Positions 18,128-52,198 of a stretch of DNA of 64,000 nt are shown piece after piece. Under the pieces are notes generated by a model that saw only the letters and a program-made list of their open reading frames with translations, was not told the origin of the DNA and did no database searches. The first letter of the stretch is position 1. Each line of letters opens with the position of its first letter. The stretch is from a phage. The position numbers and the translations under genes are program-made. The stretch is from the sequence record PZ386974.1; one strand, written 5' to 3'.

Positions 18128-18157
18128 TTGCCTCCTAAGTTGAAATTACATATCTAT

Positions 18158-18382
18158 TTATACCACTCGCATGCACATATCGATACCCATATCTTTTGTA
18201 TAAAAATACTCGTCGATGTACCCAGCAAACTTCCCTTTAATATAAAGGACGTCTTCGCCACAAGGATGGTCTGCCAGGATACGAATATCCTGACGACGTA
18301 GACGATACTTTTCCATTAAGAATTTAATTTCAGTTTCAAATTCTTCATCATTATTAAAGGCATCTTCAATTGAATAACGCAT
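18158..18382 (-). CDS. hypothetical protein (uvsY.-1-like)
   Basis: 74-aa ORF downstream of uvsY, stop/start overlap. Confidence 0.6.
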   Translation of the reverse strand: MRYSIEDAFNNDEEFETEIKFLMEKYRLRRQDIRILADHPCGEDVLYIKGKFAGYIDEYFYTKDMGIDMCMRVV

Positions 18383-18795
18383 TATTGCCCCGCTTCAAAT
18401 TCTCGCATATCCTGGATATGTTTAAGTGCAAAACTACGAGACTTAACTGCGTCAAGTGCACCACTACAGAACTCAAGTAAAATTCCCCAGTATTGTAAAG
18501 TAGTCTCTATTTTAAGCACATCTTTATCTGCAGCCAGGACAGTTTTCATTTCAGATTTCTCGTATCGGTCCATACTGAATTCATCACCATCACCTCGTCC
18601 CGAGTAGTAGTCTAATCTCGCTTTTAGAGCAGTTTTCTTCTGAGTCTCTATACGCAACATTTCTTTACGAATAAATGAGTGCTTACGTAGCCATTTGCTG
18701 TATAACTTAACATTATTCGCTGTCTCATATTGCAACTTTGTCGTATCAATAGCTAAGTCTGCGTCTAACTCTTCCTGTAAATCTTCCAGCTTCAT
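18382..18795 (-). CDS. uvsY: UvsY recombination mediator
   Basis: 137-aa product from internal ATG (MKLEDLQEEL...) matches T4 UvsY; the 164-aa ORF-track version is an upstream extension. Confidence 0.9.
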   Translation of the reverse strand: MKLEDLQEELDADLAIDTTKLQYETANNVKLYSKWLRKHSFIRKEMLRIETQKKTALKARLDYYSGRGDGDEFSMDRYEKSEMKTVLAADKDVLKIETTLQYWGILLEFCSGALDAVKSRSFALKHIQDMREFEAGQ

Positions 18796-18875
18796 AATAT
18801 TCTCTCTTTTAACTAATAATCTCCCGGCTGTATCGGAAGGACCTAAAACCATTATACATAGGTTGCCTTGAAGCA

Positions 18876-19274
18876 TTACACTCTATTGCTTGATGCTAAC
18901 TGAAGTTTGATTTGTTCGATATCATCAGGGTTATCTACGACCGAAAATCTAATCTCTACTATAACTGTATAATCATCATATACTGGCGTTACACTTACAG
19001 AAAGTTTGTCGATGCGCGGCTCATAGTTACGGACGGCTGCCTGGATATTACGCTCAATCGTATCGGCTGTAAGTGGTGTCATGTTCTCGAAAAGTTCATC
19101 AACCAAATCGCATCCAAATTCAGGGTCGAAGGGGCGTGAGCCTTTTCTAGTTGTCACTATGCCAAGAAGACTATTTTTAATAGAACGAAGTCCTACAGAA
19201 CGAGCAACGTCCTTGTTCCAATCCATACGCATTTCTGGGTCGATATCTGAATAAAGTTTATTGATATTAGACAT
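18876..19274 (-). CDS. 25: baseplate wedge protein gp25
   Basis: 132 aa; MSNINKLYSDIDPEM... near-identical to T4 gp25. Confidence 0.95.
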   Translation of the reverse strand: MSNINKLYSDIDPEMRMDWNKDVARSVGLRSIKNSLLGIVTTRKGSRPFDPEFGCDLVDELFENMTPLTADTIERNIQAAVRNYEPRIDKLSVSVTPVYDDYTVIVEIRFSVVDNPDDIEQIKLQLASSNRV

Positions 19275-19900
19275 TATAGTAACTCAAAGAATTCTTTGAG
19301 GCCTCGTATTGTGTGAACGTGTGACGCCCCACATTTGGGACATTTAATAGGGGTTGCCAGATAAATTGATGGCGACACTAAAAGATTTTTAATATTGATC
19401 ATATCATCTTCTGTTATAAGGCCGTAAAGGTCGTTTATTTCTGCTTCAGTTAAATCTTCAACAGCGATGGACTCTCCATTTACAAAAACGGCCTCAATAC
19501 ATGAAGCAATCATTAATGCGATATTTTTATCGTCAAATAATTTAGGTTGACGGAACTTAATTTTAATACCACTAAACGAATACCAGGGATCGGCCTGTTC
19601 ATCTAATTGAGTGTGCAATAAATTCATATAGACTTGAAATGAATGCCCACAGGAACAATTCCAGGTGTGTTCTTGATTCACTTCACCTAATGAATGTGCC
19701 CACAGATTTACCAACAATAGCTCGGCTTCTTGTTTAGTCAAGTTTTTAGCGTTAGAGCAATTAGTGATAATATTGTTCACTGCTGATTCAATAGTACCGG
19801 TAGCCCGCGCACCTATGAGTCCTAAATATTCTTTTAAAGTAAAGGCTCTACAATTCACTTCTTTATCGCCTAAACGTACGGTAAACGTATATTTGTACAT
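19274..19900 (-). CDS. 26: baseplate hub protein gp26
   Basis: 208 aa, T4 gp26 length; ATGA overlap with gene 25. Confidence 0.9.
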   Translation of the reverse strand: MYKYTFTVRLGDKEVNCRAFTLKEYLGLIGARATGTIESAVNNIITNCSNAKNLTKQEAELLLVNLWAHSLGEVNQEHTWNCSCGHSFQVYMNLLHTQLDEQADPWYSFSGIKIKFRQPKLFDDKNIALMIASCIEAVFVNGESIAVEDLTEAEINDLYGLITEDDMINIKNLLVSPSIYLATPIKCPKCGASHVHTIRGLKEFFELL

Positions 19901-19918
19901 GTTAACTCCTTTATTGTG

Positions 19919-19930
19919 TATTTATAAATA
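19919..19930. promoter_or_regulatory. palindromic bidirectional late promoter TATTTATAAATA between genes 26 and 51
   Basis: 12-bp palindrome gives TATAAATA on both strands, correctly spaced upstream of gene 51 (+) and gene 26 (-). Confidence 0.5.
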
Positions 19931-19947
19931 ATAGAAAAGGAGTAATT

Positions 19948-20700
19948 ATGGCTAATATAATTCGTTGTAAATTACCGGATGGTGTTCATCGTTTTAAGCC
20001 GTTCACTGTGGCGGATTATAGAGACTTTTTACTAGTTAGAAATGACATCGAACATCGTTCGCCGCAAGAACAAAAAGAAATAATTGCCGATCTGATTGAT
20101 GATTATTTTGGCGAGTACCCTAAAACATGGCAACCATTTATATTCCTGCAAGTTTTTGCAGGCTCTATAGGCAAAACAAAAGTTCCCGTTATTTTCACTT
20201 GCCCTAAATGCTCTAAAGAAAAAACTGCACCATTTGAGATATATCAAAAAGAACTAGTCGAACCTGAACTTGATGTTGCTGGTATAAAAATACGGTTTTC
20301 TTTCCCTGAAAAGTTTTATGACAACAAGGCGTTAATGATAAGTGAAAACATAAAAGAAATATATTATAATGACGAATGGTACCCATGGAATGATTTGACT
20401 GAAGAGAACCAAATCCAAGTAATAGAAGCAATAGACATTGACTCGCTCGAGAAGGTTATTGCTTCTATGAACCCTATTAATTTAACTCTTAGATTAGGTT
20501 GTTGTGAACGACATGTTAAAACATATACTGATATCTTAGAGGTTTTTAAATTGTTAGTTAACCCTGATGAGATTTTTACATTCTATCAGATAAACCATTC
20601 ACTGGTAAAGAGTCAATACACATTGGATTCTATTATGCAAATGATTCCTGTTGAACGTGGTATTGCTTTAACATTAGTAGAAAAGGACCATAAAAAATGA
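19948..20700 (+). CDS. 51: baseplate hub assembly catalyst gp51
   Basis: 250 aa, T4 synteny 26-51-27. Confidence 0.9.
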
Positions 20701-21869
20701 AAGTATTCCAACGTCCAGGATATCCTAACTTAAGCGTTAAATTATACCAAGATTATTCGGCTTGGCAAGAAAATAGATACGTTGAACTCGCGGCAACAAT
20801 AACAACTTTAACCATGCGAGATTCGTTATATGGAAGAAATGAAGGGATTCTTCAATTTTATGACACTAAAAACATCCACACTAAAATGGACGGTAGACAG
20901 ATAGTTCAAATCTCTGTTTCAAATTCAAACACGCCTCTCCAAGTTAGAACTCGAATTTATGGATGCAAACATTATTCTGTGTCTGTGGACTCAAAAGGTG
21001 ACAATATTATTGCAATTGAGCTTGGAACAATACATTCTATAGAGAACCTTAAATTTGGGCGACCATTCTTCCCGGACGCAGGAGAATCTATACGTGAAAT
21101 GTTAGGTGTCATATACAAAGACCGTGCGTTAATTACTCCGCCAATAAACACTATTAATGCTTATGTTCCTGATATCCCTTGGACAAGCACATTTGATGAT
21201 TATTTGGCATATGTCAGAGAATTAGGACTTGCTACAGCGAGTGATAAGTTCGTATTCGTATGGCAAGATATTTTAGGCGTAAACATGATTGACTATGATA
21301 CTCTTATTGGTCAGGAAGGCATTAAGATGATTGTAGGCGAGCCAAATACCGTAGGTCAGTATATTCAAGAGCTTGAGTATCCATTAGTATGGGATTTCAC
21401 CTGGATGACTAAAGCTAACCAATTTACAAGAGACCCTATTAAAAACGCCACGATATTCGCTCATTCATTTTTAGATACATCTATTCCGGTTATTGTTACA
21501 GGCGATGGTGATAATGCTATTGTTGTGTCAAGATCCGGTGGATATTCCGAAATGACCTATCGTAATGGATTTGAAGAAGCAAGTCGTCTTCAGACAATGG
21601 CTCAATATGACGGATATGCTAAATGCACTACTACAGGTAATTTTAACATAACTCCTGCTACTAAAATTATATTTGTTGACCAAAAGAACCAATTCAAATC
21701 CGAATTTTACGTGGATGAAGTTATTCATGAGTTATCAAATAACAACTCACAAACTCATCTGTACATGTTTACCAACTCAATGGTGTTAGAACCTGTTAAC
21801 CCAGTTAAGGTTAAAAATGAACTTAAATCTGATTCTACCTCTAAAGAAAATAATTCTACCACAGTCTAA
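20697..21869 (+). CDS. 27: baseplate hub protein gp27
   Basis: 390 aa, T4 gp27 length. Confidence 0.92.
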
Positions 21870-22350
21870 TAAAAAGGTAATGATTCCCAAATTAGGGCTA
21901 AAACATTATAATCTTTTAAAGGACGTTAAAGGCCCTGATGAAAACATGAAAATCTTAGCTGATTCTATTTGTAAAAATATGAGTCCTGCAGATTTTGATT
22001 TTGCGTGTCTACACATATTGGAATTTAATAACAAACTTAAGTCTGAAGTTGAAAAAGACGGATTCACGTATAAACTAGATGACGTCTATGTATGTCAACG
22101 AACAGAATTCCAATTCCAAGGCAATACTTTTTATTTTAGACCCCCAGGCAAATTTGAACAATTCGCTACAATCAGTGAAATGCTATCAAATTGCTTAATA
22201 AAAGTTAATGACGAAGAGAAAGAAATTTCTTTCCTTGAGATGCCTGCTTTTGTAATCAAATGGGCAGAAGACCTTTCGACAACTATTGCTATTCCAGGCC
22301 CTAATGGCCCTATTAAGGGTATAGCAGAAATTATTGGATTGCTTGAATGA
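21817..22350 (+). CDS. 28: baseplate hub distal subunit gp28
   Basis: 177 aa; overlaps gene 27 3' end by 53 nt as in T4. Confidence 0.88.
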
Positions 22351-24119
22351 AACCTGAAGAAATGAAATCCATGCGTAGAAATAAGGTCATTGCCGATAAT
22401 AAACCACAAAAAGTAGCTGCAACAGCAGCTACCGATTCATTAGAAGCATTGAATGACATTTCATCAAAACTAGACGATGTCCAAGCCGCGTCTGAACTCA
22501 CATCACAAAGTGTAGAAGATAAAGGCAATGGAATTATTGAATCAATTGGAGACTTAAAGAATTCGACAGATAATACTGCTGAAGGCACAGAGCTTATCGC
22601 AGAAGTTATTGAAAAACAAACTGAAGTCACTAAAAGTATAAACGAAGTTTCTAGTGCAATAAGCTCTAAGTTAGACCGATTAGCTACATTATTAGAGCAA
22701 AAATTACAAACATCTACCGCTATTCAAAATACAGGAGGCACCTCTCTTGAAGTAATTGAGAACGCAATACCTGTTAAAGTGGTTGAGAATGAAACTTCTG
22801 ATGAGTTGTTTAAAGCATTACCTACACCTGAAAAGATTGATAATAAGCCAGACGAAGATTTCTTCCCAGCCCCGGTTCAAGAAAGTGCTAATTCTACTTC
22901 CGATTCTAAAGGTGGAATTAGCTTTAAATTGAGCGATAAAATTGCAATGCTCACCAAAACAGTTCAAACCGGGTTTAATAAATCAATATCAATTTCAGAC
23001 AGAATTGCTGGAATGCTTTTCAAATACACTATAACGGCTGCTATTGAAGCAGCAAAAATGGCCGCACTTATTCTTGGTATTGTTATCGGTATTGATTTAT
23101 TGATAGTCCATTTCAAATATTGGACAGACAAGTTCACTTCTGCCTGGGATTTATTTGATGAAAACTTTACTAAATTCTCCGATGAAGCTAAAGAGTGGGG
23201 TAAATTCTTAAGTGATATATTCACTTCTATTGACTCGATAAAACAAATGTGGGAAGCTGGAGACTGGGGTGGTTTAACCGTTGCTATTGTCAAAGGTGTA
23301 GGAACAGCATTAATGAACTTAGGTGAACTAATTCAATTAGGAATGGCTAAACTCTCCGCGTCTATATTGCGTGCTATAGGTTTTGGTGATACCGCGGACG
23401 AAATAGAAGGACGTGCTTTGGAAGGATTCCAAGAAACTACTGGGAACAAATTAAAGAAAGAAGACCAAGAGAAAGTCGCTAAATATCAAATGAAGCGTGA
23501 CGATGGGGAATTAGGAACCGTTTCTAAAGGTCTTGATATGTTACAACGCGGCAAAACATTCGTTACTAACTGGGTTCGTGGTAATGACAATAAAGAAGAG
23601 TTTAGTACAAGCGATGAGCGTGCTGCGGAATCAGCAAAATTAAAAGAGTTACCTGAAGAGGAGCGTAAAGAGGCGTATATAAAAGCTAATGAAACTCGTG
23701 CGGCACTGGTTAGATTTGAGGATTATATCGATAAAATCGATATGACTAATCCAGAAAATGCTAAAAACGTCGAGAAGTCTTATGCTGATTTAAGTAAACT
23801 TATTAAAGACCCTGAACTTAATAAAACTCCTGTTGTTAAAAAGGAAATAGATGCTAGATTTGAAAAGCTAAATAATAAAATGGCTGAAGCCAAAAAGGCT
23901 CAGACAACAGTTAAGCCTGAATCTTCGACTAAATCTCCGGAAGCAAAACAAGTTCAGTCAATAGAGAAAGGACGGGCTTCTGAATCTAAACAACAGCAAC
24001 CGGTAGCGGCGATTAGTAACACAAATAATGTCGTCAAAAAGAATACCGTAGTCCAGAATATGACCCCTGTAACAAGTACAACGGCTCCTGGAATTTTCCA
24101 TGCCACCGGTGTTAATTAA
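22347..24119 (+). CDS. 29: baseplate hub / tail length determinator gp29
   Basis: 590 aa, same length as T4 gp29. Confidence 0.92.
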   Translation: MKPEEMKSMRRNKVIADNKPQKVAATAATDSLEALNDISSKLDDVQAASELTSQSVEDKGNGIIESIGDLKNSTDNTAEGTELIAEVIEKQTEVTKSINEVSSAISSKLDRLATLLEQKLQTSTAIQNTGGTSLEVIENAIPVKVVENETSDELFKALPTPEKIDNKPDEDFFPAPVQESANSTSDSKGGISFKLSDKIAMLTKTVQTGFNKSISISDRIAGMLFKYTITAAIEAAKMAALILGIVIGIDLLIVHFKYWTDKFTSAWDLFDENFTKFSDEAKEWGKFLSDIFTSIDSIKQMWEAGDWGGLTVAIVKGVGTALMNLGELIQLGMAKLSASILRAIGFGDTADEIEGRALEGFQETTGNKLKKEDQEKVAKYQMKRDDGELGTVSKGLDMLQRGKTFVTNWVRGNDNKEEFSTSDERAAESAKLKELPEEERKEAYIKANETRAALVRFEDYIDKIDMTNPENAKNVEKSYADLSKLIKDPELNKTPVVKKEIDARFEKLNNKMAEAKKAQTTVKPESSTKSPEAKQVQSIEKGRASESKQQQPVAAISNTNNVVKKNTVVQNMTPVTSTTAPGIFHATGVN

Positions 24120-24127
24120 GGATTATT

Positions 24128-25237
24128 ATGATTAGTGTAAAAGAAATAGTAGTAGATGCAAAGGATTTAAATAAAGCAATCCCAGTCTCAGAAAGTGCTG
24201 GGCAAAGCACTAAAACCGAAACAACTACTAAAACTTATGTTGCTCAATTTCCTACAGGAAGAGCAGCCGGAAATGACTCCACAGGAGACTTCCAGGTAAC
24301 AGACCTTTATAAGAACGGATTATTATTTACCGCGTACAATATGTCTGCACGCGATTCAGGATCCCTCAGGAATTTACGTCCGGCATACGCCGGGACTTCA
24401 TCTAATGGTATCATATCGGATTTAACTGATAATGTGAAAGATGCGGTGACTAAATTCTCAAATGGATTGCTTCCTGCCGGAGCTAATAAGTCTACTATAA
24501 ATAAAACTCCTGTTGCTAATATCCTTTTGCCACGTTCCAAATCTGACGTTGATACAACTTCACATCGTTTTAATGATATCGGTGATAGTCTTATTACTAA
24601 AGGTGGAGGTACTGCTACAGGTGTTTTAAGTAACATTGCTTCTACTGCAGTCTTTGGTGCATTAGATTCTATTACTCAAGGGCTTATGGCTGATAACAAC
24701 GAACAGATTTATACGACTTCTCGTAGTATGTATGGCGGTGCTGAGAACCGTACTAAAGTCTTTACATGGGATTTAACTCCACGTTCGACTGAAGACCTTA
24801 TGGCTATTATAAACATTTACCAGTATTTTAACTATTTCTCTTATGGTGAGACTGGTAAATCACAGTATGCCCAAGAGATTAAAAGTTATTTAGACGAATG
24901 GTACCGTTCAACGTTTATTGAGCCTATGACGCCAGATGATGCAGTAAAAAATAAGACATTGTTTGAAAAGATTACTGCGTCATTAACAAACGTATTAGTT
25001 GTAAGCAACCCTACAATTTGGATGGTTAAAAACTTTGGTTATACATCTAAATTTGATGGATTAACTGACGTATTTGGCCCATGTCAAATTCAAAGCGTAC
25101 GTTTTGATAAAACTCCAAATGGACAATTTAATGGTCTCGCTGTTGCTCCTAACTTACCATCAACATTTACGTTAGAGATAACAATGCGAGAAATTATTAC
25201 ATTAAACCGTTCTTCACTTTATGCGGGGACTTTCTAA
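24128..25237 (+). CDS. 48: baseplate tail tube cap gp48
   Basis: 369 aa, T4 synteny 29-48-54. Confidence 0.9.
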   Translation: MISVKEIVVDAKDLNKAIPVSESAGQSTKTETTTKTYVAQFPTGRAAGNDSTGDFQVTDLYKNGLLFTAYNMSARDSGSLRNLRPAYAGTSSNGIISDLTDNVKDAVTKFSNGLLPAGANKSTINKTPVANILLPRSKSDVDTTSHRFNDIGDSLITKGGGTATGVLSNIASTAVFGALDSITQGLMADNNEQIYTTSRSMYGGAENRTKVFTWDLTPRSTEDLMAIINIYQYFNYFSYGETGKSQYAQEIKSYLDEWYRSTFIEPMTPDDAVKNKTLFEKITASLTNVLVVSNPTIWMVKNFGYTSKFDGLTDVFGPCQIQSVRFDKTPNGQFNGLAVAPNLPSTFTLEITMREIITLNRSSLYAGTF

Positions 25238-26199
25238 TGTACTCTTTAGAAGAATTTAATAACCACGCTATAAATGCGGATTTCCAACGAAACAATATGT
25301 TTAGTTGTGTATTTGCTACTACCCCATCGACCAAATCATCTTCACTAATTTCGTCAATTGGTAGTTTTGCTTATAATAACTTAGGGTTGGATTCAGATTG
25401 GCTAGGATTGTCTCAAGGTGATATCAATCAGGGCGTAACAACCCTGATTACAGCAGGAACACAGAAATTAATTCGAAAATCGGGTGCAAGTAAATATCTG
25501 ATTGGAGCAATGAGTCAACGTACGGTACAAAGCTTGTTAGGTGAGTTCACAGTAGGAACTTATCTGATAGACTTCTTCAATATGGCATATAATAATACAG
25601 GTTTAATGATTTATTCTGTAAAAATGCCTGAGAACCGATTATCTTATGAAACGGATTTCAACTATAACTCCCCGAACATCCGAATTACCGGTCGTGAAAT
25701 GGACCCGTTAGTAATAAGCTTTAGAATGGATTCCGAAGCATCTAACTTTAGAGCAATGCAAGACTGGGTAAACTCAGTCCAAGACCCTGTAACAGGTCTT
25801 CGTGCTTTACCACAAGACGTCGAAGCAGATATTCAGGTTAATTTACACGCACGAAATGGTTTACCACATACCGCTGTCATGTTCACAGGATGTATTCCTG
25901 TTAGTGTCTCTTCTCCTGAGTTAACGTATGATGGTGATAATCAGATAACAGTTTTTGATGTAACATTTGCTTATCGCGTTATGCAATCAGGTGCTGTAAA
26001 TAGACAGGCTGCTTTAGAATGGCTGGAATCAGGACTTATTAGTAGTGTTTCAGGAATGTTTGGAAATAATCAGAATGATTCTGGACTAGGAAGTGCAGTA
26101 TCAAGACTTTCTAGATTAGGTGGGACCGCTGGAGGTGTGTCTAATATAAACACATTGACAGGTGTGGTGAATTCTGCGTCAAGAGTTTTAGGACTATAA
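25237..26199 (+). CDS. 54: baseplate tail tube initiator gp54
   Basis: 320 aa, same length as T4 gp54. Confidence 0.9.
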   Translation: MYSLEEFNNHAINADFQRNNMFSCVFATTPSTKSSSLISSIGSFAYNNLGLDSDWLGLSQGDINQGVTTLITAGTQKLIRKSGASKYLIGAMSQRTVQSLLGEFTVGTYLIDFFNMAYNNTGLMIYSVKMPENRLSYETDFNYNSPNIRITGREMDPLVISFRMDSEASNFRAMQDWVNSVQDPVTGLRALPQDVEADIQVNLHARNGLPHTAVMFTGCIPVSVSSPELTYDGDNQITVFDVTFAYRVMQSGAVNRQAALEWLESGLISSVSGMFGNNQNDSGLGSAVSRLSRLGGTAGGVSNINTLTGVVNSASRVLGL

Positions 26200-26206
26200 A
26201 GAAAAA

Positions 26207-26226
26207 GGGAGACAACGTCTCCCTTT
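26207..26226. terminator. bidirectional terminator hairpin (GGGAGAC...TCTCCC) between gene 54 and alt-side genes
   Basis: GC stem flanked by A-run and T-run between convergent transcription units. Confidence 0.55.
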
Positions 26227-26232
26227 AGGGGT

Positions 26233-26526
26233 TTATTTACGGAATGAAAGGAATGCTGGTGCTCGGAATGGAGTATCATCTTTAGAGTATTTAACTAATA
26301 CGACCATTGGTACCTCTGTTTCTAAATGACCCGTCACTACACCGACAAAAATTTGATCAGTGTGTTCAGGGTCACGAAAGTTTTTAAGAGGTTCCATAGC
26401 AATATGGAATGCACCTGGGAATACTCGATTCAATTCGTCAATCACAGCTTCGTTAAAAGCATCATCCGCTGGGATAACATCTTCAACTACTAGTTCTTGA
26501 CCATTAAAGCGAAGCATAGATTTCAT
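26233..26526 (-). CDS. hypothetical protein (alt.-1-like)
   Basis: 97-aa product from ATG with GAGGAAA RBS; early-type promoter upstream at 26556-26585. Confidence 0.55.
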   Translation of the reverse strand: MKSMLRFNGQELVVEDVIPADDAFNEAVIDELNRVFPGAFHIAMEPLKNFRDPEHTDQIFVGVVTGHLETEVPMVVLVKYSKDDTPFRAPAFLSFRK

Positions 26527-26555
26527 AACGTTTTCCTCGTGTTGTTGATGGGATG

Positions 26556-26585
26556 ATAGTATCACACATCCATGTGTTTGTAAAC
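26556..26585 (-). promoter_or_regulatory. T4 early-type promoter (GTTTACA-N17-TACTAT)
   Basis: minus-strand GTTTACA, 17-nt spacer, TACTAT, overlapping 3' end of alt. Confidence 0.45.
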
Positions 26586-28672
26586 TATCCTTGGACAAAT
26601 TTAAACGGAACTGATTCTAAATCCATTAAAGATGCTAACAATTTCAATCCTTTAGGAGCACTAGTTTTTTCTACAAATGAAGAGAACGATACTGGCTCAT
26701 CCGATTCGATTTCACCCGTCATAGCAACCACCTCGCCTGTTTCCATGAGAACATCACCATCATAAATGACAGCTTCATCCAACTGGTCCGAGGACATGAC
26801 TTCAGCTTGAATAAATTTAAGGTTGGATTCTAAACCCGCACCAGTGTCAGATGACGCATCTGTAATTTTATTTATTTGCAAGAGAATGCCTCTAGGCAAA
26901 ATAATTTCTTGCTCATTAGGGTGATTACTCAACTGTCCTGGATAAATCACGTTAACTTTATGAGCGCCATCAATAGCCCATCCAACGTTAACACGGATTT
27001 GTTCTGGCGCATGCATAGCTGTTCTTACTTGACTAGGAGAAATAGTAACACCTTCGTCATTATTGTCAATGTTAAGCTCTTTGCGAACTTCTTCAGGAGC
27101 AAGTCCAAGGGCAACGTTCTCTTTAAACCCACCGAAAATAATAGGAGCTAGTGAAGTGGAAACATAGTTTCTGAAGTAGAATACCTTATTTTTAACCATT
27201 GCTTCGTAAATAGGCATTCTGATAGACTGAGCTCTATATAACGTTAGTCCTTCAGGTAAACGGTCTCCATTTAAAAACGCCGAATCAAGACCATCAATAG
27301 CGCGTTTAACTTCATCTTCATCCGCAACATCGTAAAAATCCGGTTTATAACGACCTAACAACATATTATTGATATCTATATATGCAGAAGAGGCATATTC
27401 ACGAATAGCTCGTTTTTCAGCAACAGAGTATTGTTTAGGGTCTCGATTCATTGTTATATTAAAGGTGCCTCTAGCCGATTCTCTGGCATAAGTATACATC
27501 ACATTAGACAAGAACGCTGATTTACGTTGTTTCCAAGTTCTTTCAGATACTTCAGCTAAAACGTCGTCAGGCAGTTGGAAATTATCACGTCTAAAATCTT
27601 CAAACCATTCGTCTTTAATAGAGTCTGCAATTTCATTTGCAGCTTCAACAAAAGCAGCTAATGCTTTAACAGATGTTGTTTTTTCGGTTTTAATTTTCTT
27701 AGCAAACTTTTCTAAAGTCGGCTTAATAACACTACCATAAGAAACTTCATCAGCAAATTTAAAGGATTCATCAATACGATTATAAATCTTATTTTCGATA
27801 TCAGCAACTAAAGTGCCTTTTGCTGTGGACGATGCTTGGGCTAGTACGATTTCATATGCTTCAGGAAGTAATTCGGCCGTAGCTGGGCCACTAACTTCTT
27901 TAGCAGAATTTTCGTATTTCTGGAATAACTCACCTTCTTGTCGGTCAGCTTCTAAAGATTGACTTGCTGCAATAGCACGACGAGAAATTTTAGTACGAGC
28001 AATAACAGGCTTATCTTTACGTTTTTCTTCTACAGCAGCAATAGAACCAGCGATAGCCGTTTCTTTGGTGACCTTTTCGCCAGTCTTTTTACTCACATAA
28101 ACTTCGCCAACATCAGAATCTACTTTCGCGTACAACTCTGTGTTAATGTTAGGGATGCCTTTAATATCTTCAATGTTGGCATTTTTACGAACCATCATCA
28201 CATAGGTGTGTTTACCTGTGAATTGATACATTGCCGACAATACTTTAAAACGACCACCGGTTTTAGTAGAAACTAAACGAGCAAGAAGAGTTTGAAGCTG
28301 TTGTCCACGTCCTTTCAATTTCTTGGTAGGGAATCGGAACAGAACTGCATCCATACGAAGAGCTTTAACCTGTTCATATACTGTATTGAAAATAGTGTTG
28401 ATTGCATCAATAGGAGCAGGACCAAGGCCATTTTTCAATTCAGCTAGATTACCCTTTTCAGACAGACTCATAATAACAACATGAGCGTATTTGTCGCCAA
28501 GTTTAACTTGTTTTACAGCGTCGCCTTCGGAAAGGTAAGAGAATAAACGAACTACAATATTTGTATCGATATCACCAATTTTCCAGACTTGTGGAACTTT
28601 AGCTTTAGGGTTCAAATTGACGACAGGAAGACTGCCTTCAGATTCAAACACTTCATTTAATTGTTCAGACAT
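26585..28672 (-). CDS. alt: Alt ADP-ribosyltransferase (packaged, modifies host RNA polymerase)
   Basis: 695 aa; C-terminal ART signatures (YVSTSLAP STS motif, EQEIILPRG catalytic Glu); T4 synteny next to gene 30. Confidence 0.88.
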   Translation of the reverse strand: MSEQLNEVFESEGSLPVVNLNPKAKVPQVWKIGDIDTNIVVRLFSYLSEGDAVKQVKLGDKYAHVVIMSLSEKGNLAELKNGLGPAPIDAINTIFNTVYEQVKALRMDAVLFRFPTKKLKGRGQQLQTLLARLVSTKTGGRFKVLSAMYQFTGKHTYVMMVRKNANIEDIKGIPNINTELYAKVDSDVGEVYVSKKTGEKVTKETAIAGSIAAVEEKRKDKPVIARTKISRRAIAASQSLEADRQEGELFQKYENSAKEVSGPATAELLPEAYEIVLAQASSTAKGTLVADIENKIYNRIDESFKFADEVSYGSVIKPTLEKFAKKIKTEKTTSVKALAAFVEAANEIADSIKDEWFEDFRRDNFQLPDDVLAEVSERTWKQRKSAFLSNVMYTYARESARGTFNITMNRDPKQYSVAEKRAIREYASSAYIDINNMLLGRYKPDFYDVADEDEVKRAIDGLDSAFLNGDRLPEGLTLYRAQSIRMPIYEAMVKNKVFYFRNYVSTSLAPIIFGGFKENVALGLAPEEVRKELNIDNNDEGVTISPSQVRTAMHAPEQIRVNVGWAIDGAHKVNVIYPGQLSNHPNEQEIILPRGILLQINKITDASSDTGAGLESNLKFIQAEVMSSDQLDEAVIYDGDVLMETGEVVAMTGEIESDEPVSFSSFVEKTSAPKGLKLLASLMDLESVPFKFVQG

Positions 28673-28712
28673 AGAGTTTTCCTTTTAGTAATAATTTATA
28701 TTTATGCCAAAA

Positions 28713-28728
28713 AGAGCCCGAAGGCTCT
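28713..28728 (-). terminator. hairpin AGAGCC-ttcg-GGCTCT + T-run upstream of alt
   Basis: minus-strand stem-loop followed by TTTTTGG between upstream ORF and alt. Confidence 0.5.
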
Positions 28729-28916
28729 TAATCCACAATCGGGAGCAAAGTACGATAAACTTCAAAATTAGGGCCTTTTTCGTACGTATCAAAATTGTCC
28801 ATAAAAATATTATAGGAATCGTTATTAGGAAAATCTAATATAATCTGAGAGCAAGAGGTGGAAACATCTCCACCATCCTTCTTAGCTACAATAACTGTTT
28901 CTAAATAAGCTTTCAT
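28728..28916 (-). CDS. hypothetical protein
   Basis: 62-aa ORF starting at ATG overlapping ligase stop (TAATG). Confidence 0.5.
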   Translation of the reverse strand: MKAYLETVIVAKKDGGDVSTSCSQIILDFPNNDSYNIFMDNFDTYEKGPNFEVYRTLLPIVD

Positions 28917-30409
28917 TATAAACCTGTCTGGGACCACGGTCCAAATACGTCTTCAAACGAATCCGCTTCTGTTTTATCAAAACGGAACCCTTTAATAATT
29001 GGAAGGAAAATACCTACAGTACCTTCACGGCCTTTAGAATGAACCCAACCATTACATTCACAATCAGCGATACGTCCAATTAATTTACCTTCACGAGCTT
29101 CGGTCATTAATCGTTCACGGTCCAAATCATGTCGCTCATCTAAAGGAATAAGAACCTTTACACCGTCAACTGTTTTATGAGTTGTATCTTTAAACCCTGA
29201 ACCACAATCAGTTGTAATACGACGACAACGTGATACGAGTTCGACACCACCTAATTTGTTAGGGTCTTTAGAGTGTTCATAGTATCCTACAACTTCTAAA
29301 GCGATATCAATAACTTCTTTAAATTTAATTAGGTTCTTAGAGCGTTTGTTTTCCCAATATGAATCACGGTTTTTAAGGATAATACCTTCAAGACCTTGGT
29401 CAACATATTTTTTATAAACCACTTTAGCTTCGTCAAGATTACGAACTAACTGATTTTCAATTGGCTCAATTCGTTTAAAGCCTTCAGCCATATTTTCAAG
29501 AGCAGCAAAACGAACATCGTATTTCTGACCTTTAATTTTGCCATCAGAATAGACTTCATCTAAAGGAACATAGTCCCAGGCTTGAAGAACCATACCTTCC
29601 GCTTCTTTAGGAGAAATAGTCCCTTGAAGAGATTTATTTGCTAAACCATTTGAAGTGCTACGGTCTGCAACTTGTACTTCTTCGGATTCTTCATTATCAC
29701 CAAATAAGAACGACAGGTCGTTTCCTGAGCTCACAGCCTTTTTAATATCGAATGAATGATAAACTAATTCACCATCGATTAAAACCCCATTAGGGTGTCT
29801 TTCACGAGCTTCTTTAGTCATTTCCATTAGTTCATCCGCTAATAGAGTAAGACCATGGTATTCGTTACCAGCACGAGAAAAGAATTGAACACCATCATCG
29901 CGAACTTCAGCGAAACAACGAGCACCATCTGCTTTTAATTGGGCAAATGCGGGCCATTTAATATTTTTAGTAATCAATTTCTCATCATATGCAGATGCTA
30001 ACATCTGTGGTTGCAATTGAATAAGTCCAGGCCACACCTTATTCGCGATAGACACTGAAGCACCTACTTCAAGGTCGCGCATCATTACACGACGAAGGAC
30101 TTCTACATCATCAGGTTTACCATCAGCGATATAACCCATGAGCTCTTTAATTGCAGCATTACCAGTGAGTTTACGAGTGGCTAATGTGAACTCAATAAAA
30201 TCCAACATGTCATCTAATTCAAGAAGACCATATGCTTGAGACCTTTCACCCGGTCCTGGCCATTTCTTAATATAATACTGGATACCACGTGCATATGTTA
30301 AACGATACACACGTTCAAGTAATTTGTTGTCCTTATTTTTCTTAAGGATTTCTTGTTTTGTTTTAGTAGAACCGATCGCAGCTATTTGGTTTAAAATATC
30401 TAAAATCAT
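28916..30409 (-). CDS. 30: ATP-dependent DNA ligase gp30
   Basis: 497 aa; N-terminus MILDILNQIAAIGSTKTKQ and active-site KADGAR match T4 DNA ligase. Confidence 0.95.
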   Translation of the reverse strand: MILDILNQIAAIGSTKTKQEILKKNKDNKLLERVYRLTYARGIQYYIKKWPGPGERSQAYGLLELDDMLDFIEFTLATRKLTGNAAIKELMGYIADGKPDDVEVLRRVMMRDLEVGASVSIANKVWPGLIQLQPQMLASAYDEKLITKNIKWPAFAQLKADGARCFAEVRDDGVQFFSRAGNEYHGLTLLADELMEMTKEARERHPNGVLIDGELVYHSFDIKKAVSSGNDLSFLFGDNEESEEVQVADRSTSNGLANKSLQGTISPKEAEGMVLQAWDYVPLDEVYSDGKIKGQKYDVRFAALENMAEGFKRIEPIENQLVRNLDEAKVVYKKYVDQGLEGIILKNRDSYWENKRSKNLIKFKEVIDIALEVVGYYEHSKDPNKLGGVELVSRCRRITTDCGSGFKDTTHKTVDGVKVLIPLDERHDLDRERLMTEAREGKLIGRIADCECNGWVHSKGREGTVGIFLPIIKGFRFDKTEADSFEDVFGPWSQTGL

Positions 30410-30675
30410 TTGATGACCTCGATTTTGGTTACGGTTCTATTATAAGCCACTTCATCTAGAAGCGATTTCAGCGTTTTCTGATAAGTGGTAATCCATTTAC
30501 CGAGTCCTTCAACATAATATTCTGAAATGTAGATGAACCCTTGTTCAACACACTCTTTAAATATTTCTGCGTCTTTTACTGAACGAAACACCGGCCAGTC
30601 TCGAAAGAACATGTTAACATGACCGTAGTCACGCGTTGTGTTTTTGCCATCTGTAATATCATGAACTACAAACAT
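30406..30675 (-). CDS. hypothetical protein (30.1-like)
   Basis: 89-aa ORF, ATGA overlap with gene 30. Confidence 0.6.
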   Translation of the reverse strand: MFVVHDITDGKNTTRDYGHVNMFFRDWPVFRSVKDAEIFKECVEQGFIYISEYYVEGLGKWITTYQKTLKSLLDEVAYNRTVTKIEVIK

Positions 30676-30684
30676 AATTAGCCC

Positions 30685-31500
30685 TTAACAATTTATAGAC
30701 CAAGTCCATTTAGACGAATCTAAAGGAAAGTTTTGAATCGTCCACCATGGCTGCATATCGGTTGGTCCTGGGGTTCGCCAGGTATACGGATTCGACGGAG
30801 CACCAATTTGATTAGGCCATGCGCCTGGACTTGTTGTACCAGATTCTTTAAGCAAATCCGCCAATCGTTTTAAAAGGTCTTCACGATCTGAATCTGAATT
30901 ATGCTCTGGTGGAACCAAACGAGATTCAATATCATCCCACGTGTGTACACGTTGTGCAGTACGAGGAATGGCATCACGTTCACCACGAGCCAACCAATAA
31001 ATCGGTACATTAAGAATTTCTGCTGCATGGTCACAGTGATGAGCTAAATCGTCAACGTAACAAATCACGTTATATTTTGTTTTAGCTAGTTCAAATAATT
31101 GTTCCTTTGAAGAATCATGACCACACATCATTACTTCAGAGAAAGCGCCTGGGAACAAAGCATTCAAATTAAATTGTCTATTCAATCGAGCATCAATTGA
31201 ATCACCTAGCGCCGTCACAGCTACAAAATTATAGTCTTCTTTTAGTTTATTGATAACTCGAAGAGCATCCGAATAAGGCGCTAAGTAACGAATAAAATCA
31301 GAGCTATTATATTTTTCTATTAATTGTTTACCAAGGTTATCGTCGGTATTGAACAGTTTACCAGGAGAAATAAATTTTTCGTCCTGAATCATTTTTAAAA
31401 TATGTTCTAATGGAAGGTTATATTTTTGGGCAAAATAAGGAAGTCCAGATTGCCAGCTTAAACATACACCATCAATATCAGTCAAAATAGTAGGCTTCAT
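30685..31500 (-). CDS. HAD-superfamily phosphatase-like protein (30.2-like)
   Basis: 271 aa; N-terminal DIDGV motif typical of HAD hydrolases. Confidence 0.65.
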   Translation of the reverse strand: MKPTILTDIDGVCLSWQSGLPYFAQKYNLPLEHILKMIQDEKFISPGKLFNTDDNLGKQLIEKYNSSDFIRYLAPYSDALRVINKLKEDYNFVAVTALGDSIDARLNRQFNLNALFPGAFSEVMMCGHDSSKEQLFELAKTKYNVICYVDDLAHHCDHAAEILNVPIYWLARGERDAIPRTAQRVHTWDDIESRLVPPEHNSDSDREDLLKRLADLLKESGTTSPGAWPNQIGAPSNPYTWRTPGPTDMQPWWTIQNFPLDSSKWTWSINC

Positions 31501-31964
31501 AAAGAGTCTCTTAATAGGTTTAACACATCAATAAATTCAGCTTCAGTTAGTATTGTATCATCTTTTGTTAGGTGGCTAGCCATGCTGTGCTTCAAAATTT
31601 TTCCTTTAGAGGCTTGTAAGGCATCACGAAATCCCTTATTTTGGATCGCGGCTTCAAAATATGCATTTGTGTATAATTCTTTCCACGCTTCAGAGTATCT
31701 TGAAAATGGAACTCCTAACCAGAAGAGAGTCCCACGGTCCTGAGCTCTTGCGTAAGACCTTCCAGCTTGCTGTGCAGCCAATCCAGACAACCCAAATATA
31801 CGTCTTTGTTGTTCAACATTTTTCACCTTACATCCTTGGAGAAATCCTTCAAGACCTCCGAATTGAATACCATCCATAACAAAAGGCCATTGAGCAAAGT
31901 TACTTAATGCACATGACGGCCACTTGAAATTACTTCTTATTTCTAATTCAGACATCTTTAACAC
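31497..31964 (-). CDS. NADAR/YbiA (DUF1768)-family protein (30.3-like)
   Basis: 155 aa; FKWPSCALSNFAQWPF...DGIQFGGLEGFLQGCK resembles YbiA/NADAR N-terminal signature. Confidence 0.6.
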   Translation of the reverse strand: MLKMSELEIRSNFKWPSCALSNFAQWPFVMDGIQFGGLEGFLQGCKVKNVEQQRRIFGLSGLAAQQAGRSYARAQDRGTLFWLGVPFSRYSEAWKELYTNAYFEAAIQNKGFRDALQASKGKILKHSMASHLTKDDTILTEAEFIDVLNLLRDSL

Positions 31965-32166
31965 TTATAATTTCAACATCAGCCCAATGGCCGTATCCAG
32001 GTATACGGTCTTCGATAGATAAATTTCCGTCATTTTTAGGCATTTTAATTGACGTAACGTATGGTTCTAAACGGTTTTCTGCATAATATGGAAAAACGTC
32101 TGTTACACGATAAGTAACTTCGATCATTTCCGTACCAAACAATTTCTGGATTAATTTATTCAACAT
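31948..32166 (-). CDS. hypothetical protein (30.x)
   Basis: 72-aa ORF in gene-30 operon. Confidence 0.5.
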   Translation of the reverse strand: MLNKLIQKLFGTEMIEVTYRVTDVFPYYAENRLEPYVTSIKMPKNDGNLSIEDRIPGYGHWADVEIISVKDV

Positions 32167-32353
32167 GTTTCAACCCTTTAATAGGAGATAACTCTTTACC
32201 CATACGTATGTCAGAAGTCCAATCAACCCATTGAACAGCATACGCTTCATTGATAATTCCAGCGGCGGTTTTAAATTCAGGGAGAACTTTAAAAATCACC
32301 CCAGGAATTCCAACACCTTTTAATTGGACTGTTTGTGCTATTAAAAATTTCAT
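32156..32353 (-). CDS. hypothetical protein (30.x)
   Basis: 65-aa ORF; early-type promoter upstream. Confidence 0.5.
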   Translation of the reverse strand: MKFLIAQTVQLKGVGIPGVIFKVLPEFKTAAGIINEAYAVQWVDWTSDIRMGKELSPIKGLKHVE

Positions 32354-32407
32354 ATTTTTCCACTTACTAAAGAAATCATTATACTCTAATCCGTCCTTGG
32401 ATGTAAA

Positions 32408-33022
32408 CTACTTAATGAAATTAATTTCTACCGGATGAACAACAGGTTGAGCAGTGATATATTGAGTAATTGCTTTCATGACTAGAGCTTCAGAACCAGG
32501 ATTTTTCTCAACGAATTCACGTGCTTGGTTATGAGCTTCAAGTTCACTTAGTAAACCACTTCGTTGACATCCACGGTCTTGAGTACCCTGTTCAGATAAA
32601 AAGGCGACGATGTATTTTTCATCGTCATACGGTTTAGACGGTTGAGCAAATGTTCCTTTACTTCCAAAAGGAGAGTTATGACGCCACATCACGCCGTTAG
32701 GAGTTTCAACCTTCGTATATTCGTGTGGGCCATTTTTCTTAGTTTCTTGATGTGGAACTTCATGGACCTTAGGGTTAGGACATTCAATAAAATGCTCATC
32801 TAAATCAGTCGAGAATATTAAAGTAAAACAATTACTAAATTTACCAACACCTGCCTGATAAATTTTACCTTCAGACGTTCTAATTTCACAAACCGAGCCA
32901 GCATCAGTAACTTCTAAAACTTCAAAAGGCTCGATAAGGTCATATGAGAACATGTTTTTAAGGCGTGGAGTAATATCCCCATTTTTAAAATTCATTTTAT
33001 AAAAAGTATTAACTTTAAACAT
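32408..33022 (-). CDS. hypothetical protein (30.x, 204 aa)
   Basis: 204-aa ORF in T4-like codon usage. Confidence 0.6.
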   Translation of the reverse strand: MFKVNTFYKMNFKNGDITPRLKNMFSYDLIEPFEVLEVTDAGSVCEIRTSEGKIYQAGVGKFSNCFTLIFSTDLDEHFIECPNPKVHEVPHQETKKNGPHEYTKVETPNGVMWRHNSPFGSKGTFAQPSKPYDDEKYIVAFLSEQGTQDRGCQRSGLLSELEAHNQAREFVEKNPGSEALVMKAITQYITAQPVVHPVEINFIK

Positions 33023-33034
33023 AATTTCCTCAAT

Positions 33035-33050
33035 GGGAGCCGAAGCTCCC
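33035..33050 (-). other. intergenic RNA hairpin GGGAGC-ttcg-GCTCCC
   Basis: identical 16-mer hairpin also at 33974-33989. Confidence 0.45.
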
Positions 33051-33057
33051 AGTTAAA

Positions 33058-33423
33058 TTAGATATCAAATTCGTTAAGAACTACATCAAAGATTGCTTCG
33101 AGATGTTCAGGTTTAGCTCGGTTACTCAGGATATGACGAATCCAAGTTTTAACCAGAAGTTTACGATTAACACCATTCCAGCAAGGATGAGTACCTAAAT
33201 CACGTTGACGGAAATCATCATCTAATGCAATTTTGAAGTTGGAACCTTCCATTGTGATTGAAACCGTGATGCCATTTTCAAATCGCATATAAACATAATT
33301 AGGAGTCATATACTGCTCAATTTCACATACTGAACCATTTTTATGCTTCCACAAACAAACCATATCGATAGAACCAGCGATACCGTTAGAAACATATTTG
33401 CGTTCGAAGTTGGTGTAGTTCAT
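33058..33423 (-). CDS. hypothetical protein (30.x, 121 aa)
   Basis: 121-aa ORF. Confidence 0.6.
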   Translation of the reverse strand: MNYTNFERKYVSNGIAGSIDMVCLWKHKNGSVCEIEQYMTPNYVYMRFENGITVSITMEGSNFKIALDDDFRQRDLGTHPCWNGVNRKLLVKTWIRHILSNRAKPEHLEAIFDVVLNEFDI

Positions 33424-33497
33424 TTTATTCTCCAGATGTTTAAGTTGTTTGTTGGTACAGGTCTATAATAACATAACCTGTACCAAAGTAAACTGTT

Positions 33498-33866
33498 TTA
33501 TGCAACTTTAATCCAATTGTCTAAATTTAAAACACCTTTGGCTTTCATTTTTTCGATCAGGTTATCTGCTGTAATGCGTCCATTTTGATACCATGTAACA
33601 TCTTCAGAGTAACCAGTTTCTTCGTCAACATATGTTTCTGAACGAATTTTACCGGTAATAATAGTTTTTAATTCGTATGTGTCACCTGTGAAAAAGTTTG
33701 CTAACACAATTTTCCAAGAGAAATCATCTGAAGGACCTTCAGGGGTCATACAACTTACGATCTCAAATTGCTCTTTGTATAACATCCACTGGAATTCTTT
33801 AATTTCGATAGCTTTATAACCATCGTGGTCTTTACATTTGATGTATGAGTTCAGATTGATTTTCAT
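33498..33866 (-). CDS. hypothetical protein (30.x, 122 aa)
   Basis: 122-aa ORF with early-type promoter upstream (33909-33937). Confidence 0.6.
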   Translation of the reverse strand: MKINLNSYIKCKDHDGYKAIEIKEFQWMLYKEQFEIVSCMTPEGPSDDFSWKIVLANFFTGDTYELKTIITGKIRSETYVDEETGYSEDVTWYQNGRITADNLIEKMKAKGVLNLDNWIKVA

Positions 33867-33908
33867 TTTGTTCTCCAGGTTGTTTTATTGATTAGGTGGT
33901 ACAAGTCT

Positions 33909-33937: not shown

Positions 33938-33973
33938 ATCTTTTTAAACTTTTTCTGCCCTAAACGCACAAAA

Positions 33974-33989: not shown

Positions 33990-33994
33990 TAAAA

Positions 33995-50037: not shown

Positions 50038-50691
50038 TTAATACTTACATGATTTGATTGTTTCTATGAACAATTTCTTAGCAGCATTTCCATCGATTTG
50101 AAGTATTTTTCGATATGCCTTTAATTTGGTAGAATAATTTTGCCAGACTAAGTTATCGGTGAGTTCGTCGTGCTTATCTATAATATTCAAAAATGAATCT
50201 AACAACAAGAAGGTTTCAAATGAAATTACATTGCTTTGTAGCAATTTAAATATGTAGCTCGACTGAACTTTATTATTATAATCAAATATCTCTTGAAGCG
50301 CGCTAACTTCAACTTTCTTACTGAAATAGTAGATGTTACGTACATCTTCAGCAAACGTCTCCTTGGCTTGTTTGAGACGTCCAATATATTCCCTATAGAA
50401 AACTAATGCATCAGCGTCTGATATCTCACCAATCCATGCGTCTTGGTTAGCAACTAAGTTGCTTATGAATATCAAGGTGAGTTCCTTCAATTTATATTTC
50501 TCTGCTAGTTTTTCAAAGAAATATTTATCTCGGCGTTTTTGATACGCATTATCCGAAACACGCATGCACCAGTTATATTTGATTACGTCATACCGACCAT
50601 TAAAATGTTGTTTGCACATCAAGTATAGTTTGTATACCGATTTTCCGTTAATATAACGTTCTCCATCAGGAGGCATGCGTATTTTAATCAT
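50038..50691 (-). CDS. 59: helicase loader gp59
   Basis: 217 aa, matches T4 gp59. Confidence 0.93.
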   Translation of the reverse strand: MIKIRMPPDGERYINGKSVYKLYLMCKQHFNGRYDVIKYNWCMRVSDNAYQKRRDKYFFEKLAEKYKLKELTLIFISNLVANQDAWIGEISDADALVFYREYIGRLKQAKETFAEDVRNIYYFSKKVEVSALQEIFDYNNKVQSSYIFKLLQSNVISFETFLLLDSFLNIIDKHDELTDNLVWQNYSTKLKAYRKILQIDGNAAKKLFIETIKSCKY

Positions 50692-51026
50692 AATAAGAAA
50701 TCTAACGTATTAGTTTTTTCACCACGAGCAACTGATGGGCGAAGCATATTTTCGTCAATTGCTTCGCTTGTAATTTTTTCAACAATTCCTGTAGGAATAA
50801 ATTTAGCAAATTGTGTTTCTGGGATAGAATTTTCTTCCAAGAAAGCAGTTGTTGCTTCTAAATAAGACATACCAAATTGTTCAACCATGGATTCGATAAT
50901 GAATCCGTTTTCTTGTCGGTCAAGCAATTTAGCGATATCATCTTTATCGTGTTTTACTGCTAATTCTTGTTCAGATAAACCGGCCTCATCAACCGGTTTA
51001 ATATCACTTAGTGAAAACTGTGTCAT
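50688..51026 (-). CDS. 33: late transcription co-activator gp33
   Basis: 112 aa, matches T4 gp33. Confidence 0.92.
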   Translation of the reverse strand: MTQFSLSDIKPVDEAGLSEQELAVKHDKDDIAKLLDRQENGFIIESMVEQFGMSYLEATTAFLEENSIPETQFAKFIPTGIVEKITSEAIDENMLRPSVARGEKTNTLDFLL

Positions 51027-51273
51027 AAAGCTCGACTACCTCTTCGTTTTCAGCTTCAAATTGGTCACGAGCGTCTTTATGATAAAGAGCTAACAAACGA
51101 TTAAACATTTTTCCATCGACACCAAGCTCTTCTTTAGCACGAGTACGAATGTCTTTAATCAGTTCATTATAACCAGAAATTTTAAGTTTGTTATCGGAAG
51201 CTTCCTTGACTAGTTTAGCCAGTTCTTCACCATGCACATCTTGATTAAATTCAACTGCTTCTTTCTTAGCCAT
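51004..51273 (-). CDS. dsbA: dsDNA-binding protein DsbA
   Basis: 89-aa product from internal ATG (MAKKEAVEF...) with GAGGT RBS. Confidence 0.85.
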   Translation of the reverse strand: MAKKEAVEFNQDVHGEELAKLVKEASDNKLKISGYNELIKDIRTRAKEELGVDGKMFNRLLALYHKDARDQFEAENEEVVELYDTVFTK

Positions 51274-51280
51274 GTTTACC

Positions 51281-52198
51281 TCAGAATTCATTAATTACAC
51301 TTGTTAATTTAGAAAGGCCAGATTTTACAAAGTATGAATAAATCTTGCCTTTAGGTTGTTGTTTATATGAGTTATAATACTCTATAATGGTTGAAGCAAT
51401 ATTATCAGGGATATAATCAAAATCAATGAGAACCAAATTTTCTTGATACCGTTTATATTCTTCTGCACTTAATAATACTTCAGCTTGAGAACGGTCATTA
51501 GCAATTGCTTCAATAATTGATGTTTTCATGCTTGGAGTTCGTTCACCATCAACTCTGGTAAACCAGAAGTCGCCACGAACTCGAACAGATGCAACGCCGT
51601 CTTTACGGTCACCTTTAAGAATTTTAGTCATGCAATCAATTTCAGCAGAACCGTTCTTAATTTTAACCCATTTTTTCTGTGGTGGCGACCACTGTTTAAC
51701 GTTAGGATATTTGTGTAATTGTGTAAAGTCACCATCTGATGCAACAATACATACCTTATGACCAGCTAATGACAAATATTTAGTTAATACACCGATATGG
51801 TCGTCCGCTTCATACTTGTCAATATCCATTACAACGTATGGCATGTATTTCTTAATCTCATCAACAACTTGATGGAGTGCAGTAAAATATCCTTCCCAAT
51901 CCCACTTTGAAGCTTCACGATCGGTTTTACGATTTTTCTTGTAATAGTAAGCAAAGTCACGACGCCAATAACCTGAAGTAGCATTATCCATACACAATAC
52001 AAATTTTGTATAGCCTTGCTTACGGAACATCACTACGTTTTTACGAATTGAATTCAAGATTACATGTCGAACCATTGGAACAGTAATTTTATCACCGTCT
52101 TCAAAGTTGTTTAATGCGGCTGCCAACGCAATGTTACTAAAGTCGGCAAGTGCAATACCTTCTTTGTAATCTTCATCCAACATCATTTCTAAATCCAT
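51281..52198 (-). CDS. rnh: RNase H (5'-3' exonuclease / flap endonuclease)
   Basis: 305 aa, matches T4 RNase H. Confidence 0.93.
   Translation of the reverse strand: MDLEMMLDEDYKEGIALADFSNIALAAALNNFEDGDKITVPMVRHVILNSIRKNVVMFRKQGYTKFVLCMDNATSGYWRRDFAYYYKKNRKTDREASKWDWEGYFTALHQVVDEIKKYMPYVVMDIDKYEADDHIGVLTKYLSLAGHKVCIVASDGDFTQLHKYPNVKQWSPPQKKWVKIKNGSAEIDCMTKILKGDRKDGVASVRVRGDFWFTRVDGERTPSMKTSIIEAIANDRSQAEVLLSAEEYKRYQENLVLIDFDYIPDNIASTIIEYYNSYKQQPKGKIYSYFVKSGLSKLTSVINEF

Follow-up and report, generated by a model that had tools for sequence, protein, structure and literature searches.

In phage T4, overlapping late promoters with divergent transcription were reportedly mapped in the baseplate gene cluster by Scarlato and co-workers in 1989, and the transcripts of T4 genes 26, 25 and uvsY are said to have been mapped by Gruidl and co-workers in 1991. 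No promoter features are annotated in the T4 records NC_000866 and AF158101. T4 late promoters are defined by the octamer TATAAATA at positions -13 to -6, without a -35 element, and cryo-EM of the T4 late complex shows gp55 reading the flipped non-template bases -12, -9 and -8, with gp33 and the ring of gp45 bound to the DNA duplex immediately upstream. For RB69, two late promoters, Pl:118620 (+) and Pl:118672 (-), were listed by Nolan et al. (2006; PMC1524935, Additional file 5), and these are the plus-strand and the minus-strand octamer, respectively, of the 26/51 locus described below. Both octamers are also annotated as T4-late-type promoters in the GenBank record OL960577.1 (phage SA35RD, Mosigvirus). 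The RB69 and OL960577.1 promoters have the same sequence as the locus studied here, with no substantial difference, and all of them are motif-based predictions. Since it is present in the RB69 list and in the OL960577.1 annotation, the bidirectional 26/51 late promoter is already known and is not original to this work.

Symmetric bidirectional promoters have also been described for E. coli sigma-70 (Warman, Grainger et al.; bioRxiv 10.1101/2020.01.31.928960; PMC12825309). In that class, the -10 elements of the two opposite strands share one pseudo-symmetric sequence and the divergent starts lie 7–25 bp apart, with preferred spacings of 18, 10 and 23 bp, and the polymerases compete sterically once activity is high. 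The promoters carry a TATAAT hexamer, often together with a -35 element that biases direction, and their basal activity is low. The 26/51 locus resembles this class in its overlapping octamers and would also have one of its preferred start spacings, 23 bp, although the starts are predicted ones and the class was defined on sigma-70. It differs from the class in its 8-bp gp55 motif, in the lack of a -35 element and in activation by a DNA-tracking sliding clamp; moreover, its symmetry is perfect and both of its products are needed mRNAs.

The window, i.e., the whole 64-kb stretch of DNA that was analyzed, corresponds to roughly 99.4–161.3 kb of RB69 and comes from an RB69-like Mosigvirus. The segment carrying genes 26 and 51 showed 98–99% DNA identity to about 150 Mosigvirus genomes, RB69 among them (98.3% over the 26/51 locus), and this identity to annotated RB69 genes identifies the two genes, which the RB69 record names gp26 (baseplate hub subunit) and gp51 (hub assembly catalyst). 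The gene order (uvsW.1, uvsY.-2, uvsY.-1, uvsY, 25 and 26 on one side; 51, 27 and 28 on the other) was as in T4, where the neighborhood reads uvsW, uvsY.-2, uvsY.-1, uvsY, 25 and 26, followed by 51, 27 and 28. The initial annotation had described genes 26 and 51 as two divergent baseplate-hub genes. The divergent pair, with the gene 51 ATG at 19948 (+) and the gene 26 ATG at 19900 (-) around a 47-bp intergenic region, was confirmed from the open reading frames. As a minor correction, gp51 acts as a chaperone in hub assembly and not as a subunit of the hub, and the same may apply to gp26; both proteins are entered as hub assembly chaperones in a review table. The two proteins matched each other by BLASTP (E=2e-9, 24% identity over about 200 residues) and both are full-length members of PF12322 (T4_baseplate); judging from these sequence matches, gp26 and gp51 are paralogs. 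In tblastn at E<=10, genomes with a gp51 match were also hit at a second location, which is consistent with the paralog gp26.

Additionally, the late co-activator gp33 was found to be encoded in the window (PF16805, E=3.5e-26), and the RB69 annotation includes gp55 and gp45, genes 55 and 45 lying outside the window. Therefore, the machinery that reads TATAAATA is present in such phages. The last 23 nt of dsbA are shared with gene 33; this conserved dsbA-33 overlap was pointed out as unexplained by Geiduschek and Kassavetis.

The uvsY region yielded some separate observations. The longest uvsY ORF encodes 164 aa and abuts gene 25, and the same annotation is found in RB69 and SA35RD. In the T4 record, UvsY has 137 aa and lies 76 bp away from gene 25. 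Judging from the length and from the T4 sequence, translation homologous to that of T4 UvsY probably begins at codon 28, an internal Met (MKLEDLQEEL), and the annotated uvsY N-terminus may be over-extended. The 81 nt at the 5' end of the ORF are the place where a middle promoter is annotated in SA35RD and where T4 has oriF. A further minus-strand copy of TATAAATA, within the 3' end of uvsY.-1, is separated by 29 nt from the ATG of the downstream uvsY.-2 ORF (55 aa, Shine-Dalgarno GGAGG); the SA35RD annotation includes this copy, and for RB69 it had been called as Pl:116810, with a score of 15.3.

The feature between genes 26 and 51 is a 12-mer, TATTTATAAATA, centered between 19924 and 19925 and flanked by tgtg and atag (Table 1). 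The initial annotation had stated that this 12-mer is its own reverse complement and that it presents TATAAATA on both strands at a suitable distance from each gene; both statements proved exact and all of the coordinates were correct. Directly 3' of each octamer is a late morphogenesis gene that has a strong Shine-Dalgarno sequence, with the ATG at a distance of 17 nt for gene 51 and of 18 nt for gene 26. These gaps were the shortest among the TATAAATA/ORF pairs of the window, the remaining pairs having gaps of 20–30 nt, but they agree with the 17 and 21 nt of T4. The octamer occurred 20 times in the window, vs 7.1 +/- 2.7 expected, a number that was reached by no shuffle, and about half of the copies were located 17–30 nt 5' of an ORF with a Shine-Dalgarno sequence. 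The 12-mer itself was present in one copy in the 64 kb (0.01 expected from dinucleotide-preserving shuffles). No second copy was found in RB69 1-99,500, in RB69 160,500-167,560 or in the window, so the 12-mer is unique in an RB69-type genome. A chance origin was ruled out by the expected number of copies together with the conservation reported below.

A scan of the region with the sigma-70 consensus gave a single 10/12 match, with its -10 inside gene 51. This match was judged to be fortuitous, since in T4-type phages the early and middle transcripts are all made from the opposite strand.

Table 1. Coordinates of the features of the 26/51 locus and of the sites compared with it. Positions are those of the window unless another record or segment is named.
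Feature	Coordinates	Strand	Sequence	Remarks
Perfect 12-bp palindrome	19919..19930	both	TATTTATAAATA	Two late-promoter octamers with a 4-bp overlap
Predicted late promoter, -10-like element (-13 to -6)	19923..19930	+	TATAAATA	Gene 51 and downstream genes 27, 28, 29
Predicted late promoter element	19919..19926	-	TATAAATA	Gene 26 and downstream gene 25
Predicted gene 51 mRNA leader	19936..19947	+	AAAGGAGUAAUU	12 nt; predicted +1 = 19936 (A)
Gene 51 Shine-Dalgarno	19937-19942	+	AAGGAG	Followed by 5-nt spacer TAATT
Predicted gene 26 mRNA leader	19901..19913	-	(U)AAAGGAGUUAAC	About 13 nt; predicted +1 = 19913 +/- 1
Gene 26 Shine-Dalgarno	19911..19906	-	AAGGAG	Followed by 5-nt spacer TTAAC
Extended dyad, left arm	19898..19912		CATGTTAACTCCTTT	Gene 26 start codon, spacer, Shine-Dalgarno
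Extended dyad, right arm	19936..19950		AAAGGAGTAATTATG	Gene 51 Shine-Dalgarno, spacer, start codon
26/51 intergenic region	19901-19947			47 bp, 79% A+T
Gene 26	19274..19900	-		208 aa; baseplate hub subunit/assembly chaperone; PF12322
Gene 51	19948..20700	+		250 aa; baseplate hub assembly catalyst/chaperone; PF12322; gp26 paralog
uvsY, longest ORF	18382..18876	-		164 aa
Octamer within the uvsY.-1 3' end	18155-18162	-	TATAAATA	
Sigma-70 consensus match	19932-19961	+		10/12
Gene 33	50688..51026	-		Late co-activator gp33
dsbA	51004..51291	-		
12-mer in T4 (NC_000866.4)	116450-116461			Gene 26 start 116428, gene 51 start 116479
RB69 4/53 intergenic region	RB69 80627-80687			Outside the window
RB69 4/53, octamer beside gene 4	RB69 80638-80645	+	TATAAATA	
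RB69 4/53, octamer nearer gene 53	RB69 80660..80653	-	TATAAATA	
Aeh1 4/48, 14-bp palindrome between the genes	895-915 (segment)		TATTTAGCTAAATA	
P-KP2 gp51-like gene	901-1641 (segment)			Same strand as gp26-like gene
P-KP2 gp26-like gene	1641-2192 (segment)			Same strand as gp51-like gene

The start sites were placed by the rule that the motif spans -13 to -6. They are predicted to lie 23 bp apart, at 19913 and 19936, and the 12-mer is 5' of both, so it would be part of neither mRNA. The predicted leaders of genes 26 and 51 were the shortest among the late promoter/ORF pairs of the window, with the Shine-Dalgarno sequence beginning at +2 or +3. Around the 12-mer, the extended dyad has 15-nt arms that are 80% complementary and separated by 23 nt. 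The elements follow one another in mirror order: CDS, ATG, 5-nt spacer, AAAGGAG and octamer on the left, and octamer, AAAGGAG, 5-nt spacer, ATG and paralogous CDS on the right. Given the paralogy of gp26 and gp51, the entire 26/51 unit is thus mirror-symmetric.

The reading of the 12-mer as a back-to-back promoter, proposed in the initial annotation, was supported by the octamers on both strands, the late genes, gp33 and the conservation of the site. A perfect octamer is present on each strand, the sequences upstream are not conserved among orthologs, a late assembly gene preceded by AAGGAG lies just downstream on the strand of each octamer, and gp33 is encoded in the window, as are gp55 and gp45 in RB69. 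On this sequence evidence, the 12-mer is very probably a T4-type late promoter that works back to back in both directions. With the sigma-like gp55, and with gp33 and the gp45 sliding clamp as helpers, RNA polymerase would recognize TATAAATA on the non-template strand and, with the octamer on both strands, could bind either way round. Rightward transcription would start near 19936 and proceed through gene 51 and then 27, 28 and 29, and leftward transcription would start near 19913 and cover genes 26 and 25, each mRNA having a minimal leader of 12–13 nt with the Shine-Dalgarno sequence at its very start. Base pairs 19924 and 19925, which are neighbors, carry the -12 adenines of the two promoters, so the upstream duplex of each promoter would be the melted and initially transcribed DNA of the other. 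With this DNA shared, the two orientations would be mutually exclusive at any instant, and RNA polymerase could probably occupy only one of them at a time.

Comparison with the T4 26/51 region, which the initial annotation had proposed as a check, revealed the identical 12-mer in the same place. The T4 locus is orthologous to that of the window, and its gene 51 likewise begins 17 nt after the motif. By contrast, its intergenic region is 50 bp long instead of 47, the gap to gene 26 is 21 nt instead of 18, and the flanking bases differ. In RB69 and SA35RD, the entire 47-bp intergenic region was identical to that of the window. The 12-mer was found at 26/51 in 11 genera of the annotated panel, including representatives of Karamvirus, Gelderlandvirus, Gaprivervirus, Dhakavirus and Kagamiyamavirus, as well as of Jiaodavirus, Zedzedvirus, Lazarusvirus and Muldoonvirus. 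The exact 12-mer was also detected in 47 of the 53 loci of an unselected IMG/VR set encoding gp51 relatives of 38–100% identity. When 30 distinct sequences were anchored on the palindrome, all 12 of its positions were invariant. The commonest base at the positions adjoining it reached only 33–43%, and most of the other flanking positions were at about 30–55%; the Shine-Dalgarno and leader positions were better conserved, up to 93%.

This conservation bears on the possibility that only one of the octamers works, most plausibly that of gene 51, with the palindrome being incidental and gene 26 transcribed from elsewhere. A consensus match alone does not prove activity, and for some of the late-promoter sites listed for T4, activity in vivo is unproven (Geiduschek and Kassavetis). 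Some relatives also fit a single promoter. In Krischvirus/RB49-like phages (four loci), the intergenic region is 70 bp long and contains TATTTAGTATTTTATAAATA, with a perfect TATAAATA on the plus strand only and just the variants ACTAAATA and TATAAAAT on the minus strand. In the RB49 list of Nolan et al., a single low-scoring plus-strand site, without a minus-strand partner, falls at the expected 26/51 location, as estimated from the G2494 coordinates. Gene 26 of Krischvirus may, from the variants present, use a variant late promoter. However, TATT (19919-19922) belongs to the minus-strand octamer only and AATA (19927-19930) to the plus-strand octamer only, and each of these outer tetramers was invariant in the 30 sequences against the 33–43% of the adjoining flanks, which argues that both promoters are under selection and used. 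In addition, the minus strand 5' of gene 26 is antisense to late genes, and no further minus-strand TATAAATA was found there from 19931 to 34834. A single working octamer is thus very unlikely.

Some Aeromonas phages (five loci) have a shorter, 10-bp palindrome, TATTTAAATA, which lacks the 2 bp at the center of the 12-mer, and in which each strand reads TTTAAATA, with T for A at -12. The 44RR list of Nolan et al. contains no late promoter near the expected 26/51 site, provided that one of the Aeromonas contigs with the 10-mer is 44RR, and the missing entry fits the variant 10-mer. Since Krischvirus and some Aeromonas phages are without the exact palindrome, the arrangement is not obligatory.

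Other divergent late pairs were compared with the 26/51 locus. The RB69 4/53 intergenic region is a second one, and, as in 26/51, late motifs on opposite strands are present in a short intergenic region between divergent late genes. In contrast to 26/51, the octamers are 7 bp apart and crossed, each lying downstream of the predicted start of the other, and the predicted transcripts would overlap at their 5' ends by about 5 nt. In Aeh1, whose late consensus is CTAAATA, a 14-bp palindrome, TATTTAGCTAAATA, was found between the divergent late genes 4 and 48. It consists of two CTAAATA motifs back to back and coincides with Pl:122785/Pl:122835 of Nolan et al. The back-to-back arrangement is that of 26/51, but the 14-mer is made from the CTAAATA variant; by its sequence, the Aeh1 4/48 site is the same design rebuilt from the motif of its own lineage.

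The Aeh1 site is also informative about whether the palindrome could mainly be the binding site of a dimeric protein, such as DsbA, or a DNA structure that regulates 26/51, with the promoter role being secondary. The 12-mer has the perfect dyad symmetry that such a site would have, DsbA is encoded in the window, and DsbA has been reported at A/T-rich sites overlapping two T4 late promoters, with micromolar affinity only. Nevertheless, two octamers overlapping by 4 bp fully explain the 12 invariant positions, so no extra constraint is needed, and the Aeh1 14-mer shifts in step with the Aeh1 late consensus, as a promoter would. As to structure, a loopless 12-bp palindrome composed entirely of A/T forms no stable hairpin, and a hairpin or cruciform was rejected on this ground; the sole larger inverted repeat is that of the Shine-Dalgarno/start-codon arms. 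A main function in protein binding or DNA structure is therefore highly improbable, and binding of DsbA as an added layer on the 26/51 promoter is a minor possibility.

The mirror symmetry could also be a passive relic, maintained without selection, of the inverted duplication that yielded genes 26 and 51. This would agree with the paralogy of the two proteins and with a module in which promoter, Shine-Dalgarno sequence, ATG and CDS are all mirror-symmetric. At 24% protein identity, however, neutral symmetry in the DNA would have been erased long ago. The flanks are mostly at about 30–55%, the symmetry is gone beyond the Shine-Dalgarno/start-codon arms, and the 12-mer is invariant amid these diverged flanks, which points to active purifying selection and refutes a neutral relic.

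The arrangement of the genes in Slopekvirus is relevant here. In the Klebsiella phage P-KP2, the paralogs (PF12322) are in tandem on one strand, the gp51-like gene followed by the gp26-like gene, and upstream of the pair are a gp19-family gene and a terminator-like GC-rich hairpin followed by a T run. No palindromic late promoter was found at this tandem 26/51 locus, so the palindrome goes with the head-to-head order. Given the tandem pair, head-to-head need not have been the ancestral order, and this too speaks against a passive relic, an explanation that is hardly credible. Inverted duplication as the sole cause of the symmetry was rejected for its maintenance, given the diverged flanks, but could explain its origin.

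If the 12-mer is a bidirectional late promoter, a role that goes further than the saving of space can be envisaged, in which the palindrome would set an alternating, approximately 1:1 firing of gp26 and gp51, or would tie direction to the polarity of the clamp left by the replication fork, in a module derived from inverted duplication. The idea of a set ratio comes from the probable use of one orientation at a time and from the requirement for an upstream gp45 clamp of the correct polarity for activation. Taken as a whole, this combined proposal is unlikely.

The 26/51 palindrome is textbook T4 biology in an RB69-like phage and has little weight as a discovery; its value is that of a clean annotation, with two late promoters, two predicted starts and minimal leaders. 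To this, the survey adds that none of the 12 bases varies among phages with gp51 identities of only 38–100%. What is new here is that the paralogy of gp26 and gp51 turns the locus into a mirror-symmetric unit, and that the 23-bp spacing of the predicted starts would probably allow occupancy in one orientation only. The residual novelty lies in the possible consequences of perfect symmetry, i.e., competition between orientations, clamp polarity and balanced expression of the paralogs. The locus offers a natural, perfectly symmetric bidirectional promoter with a minimal sigma factor and without a -35 element, which could be a convenient model for the choice of orientation by RNA polymerase and for steric competition, and the natural variants (the 10-mer, the 14-mer and the crossed or separated octamers) could serve as comparison constructs.
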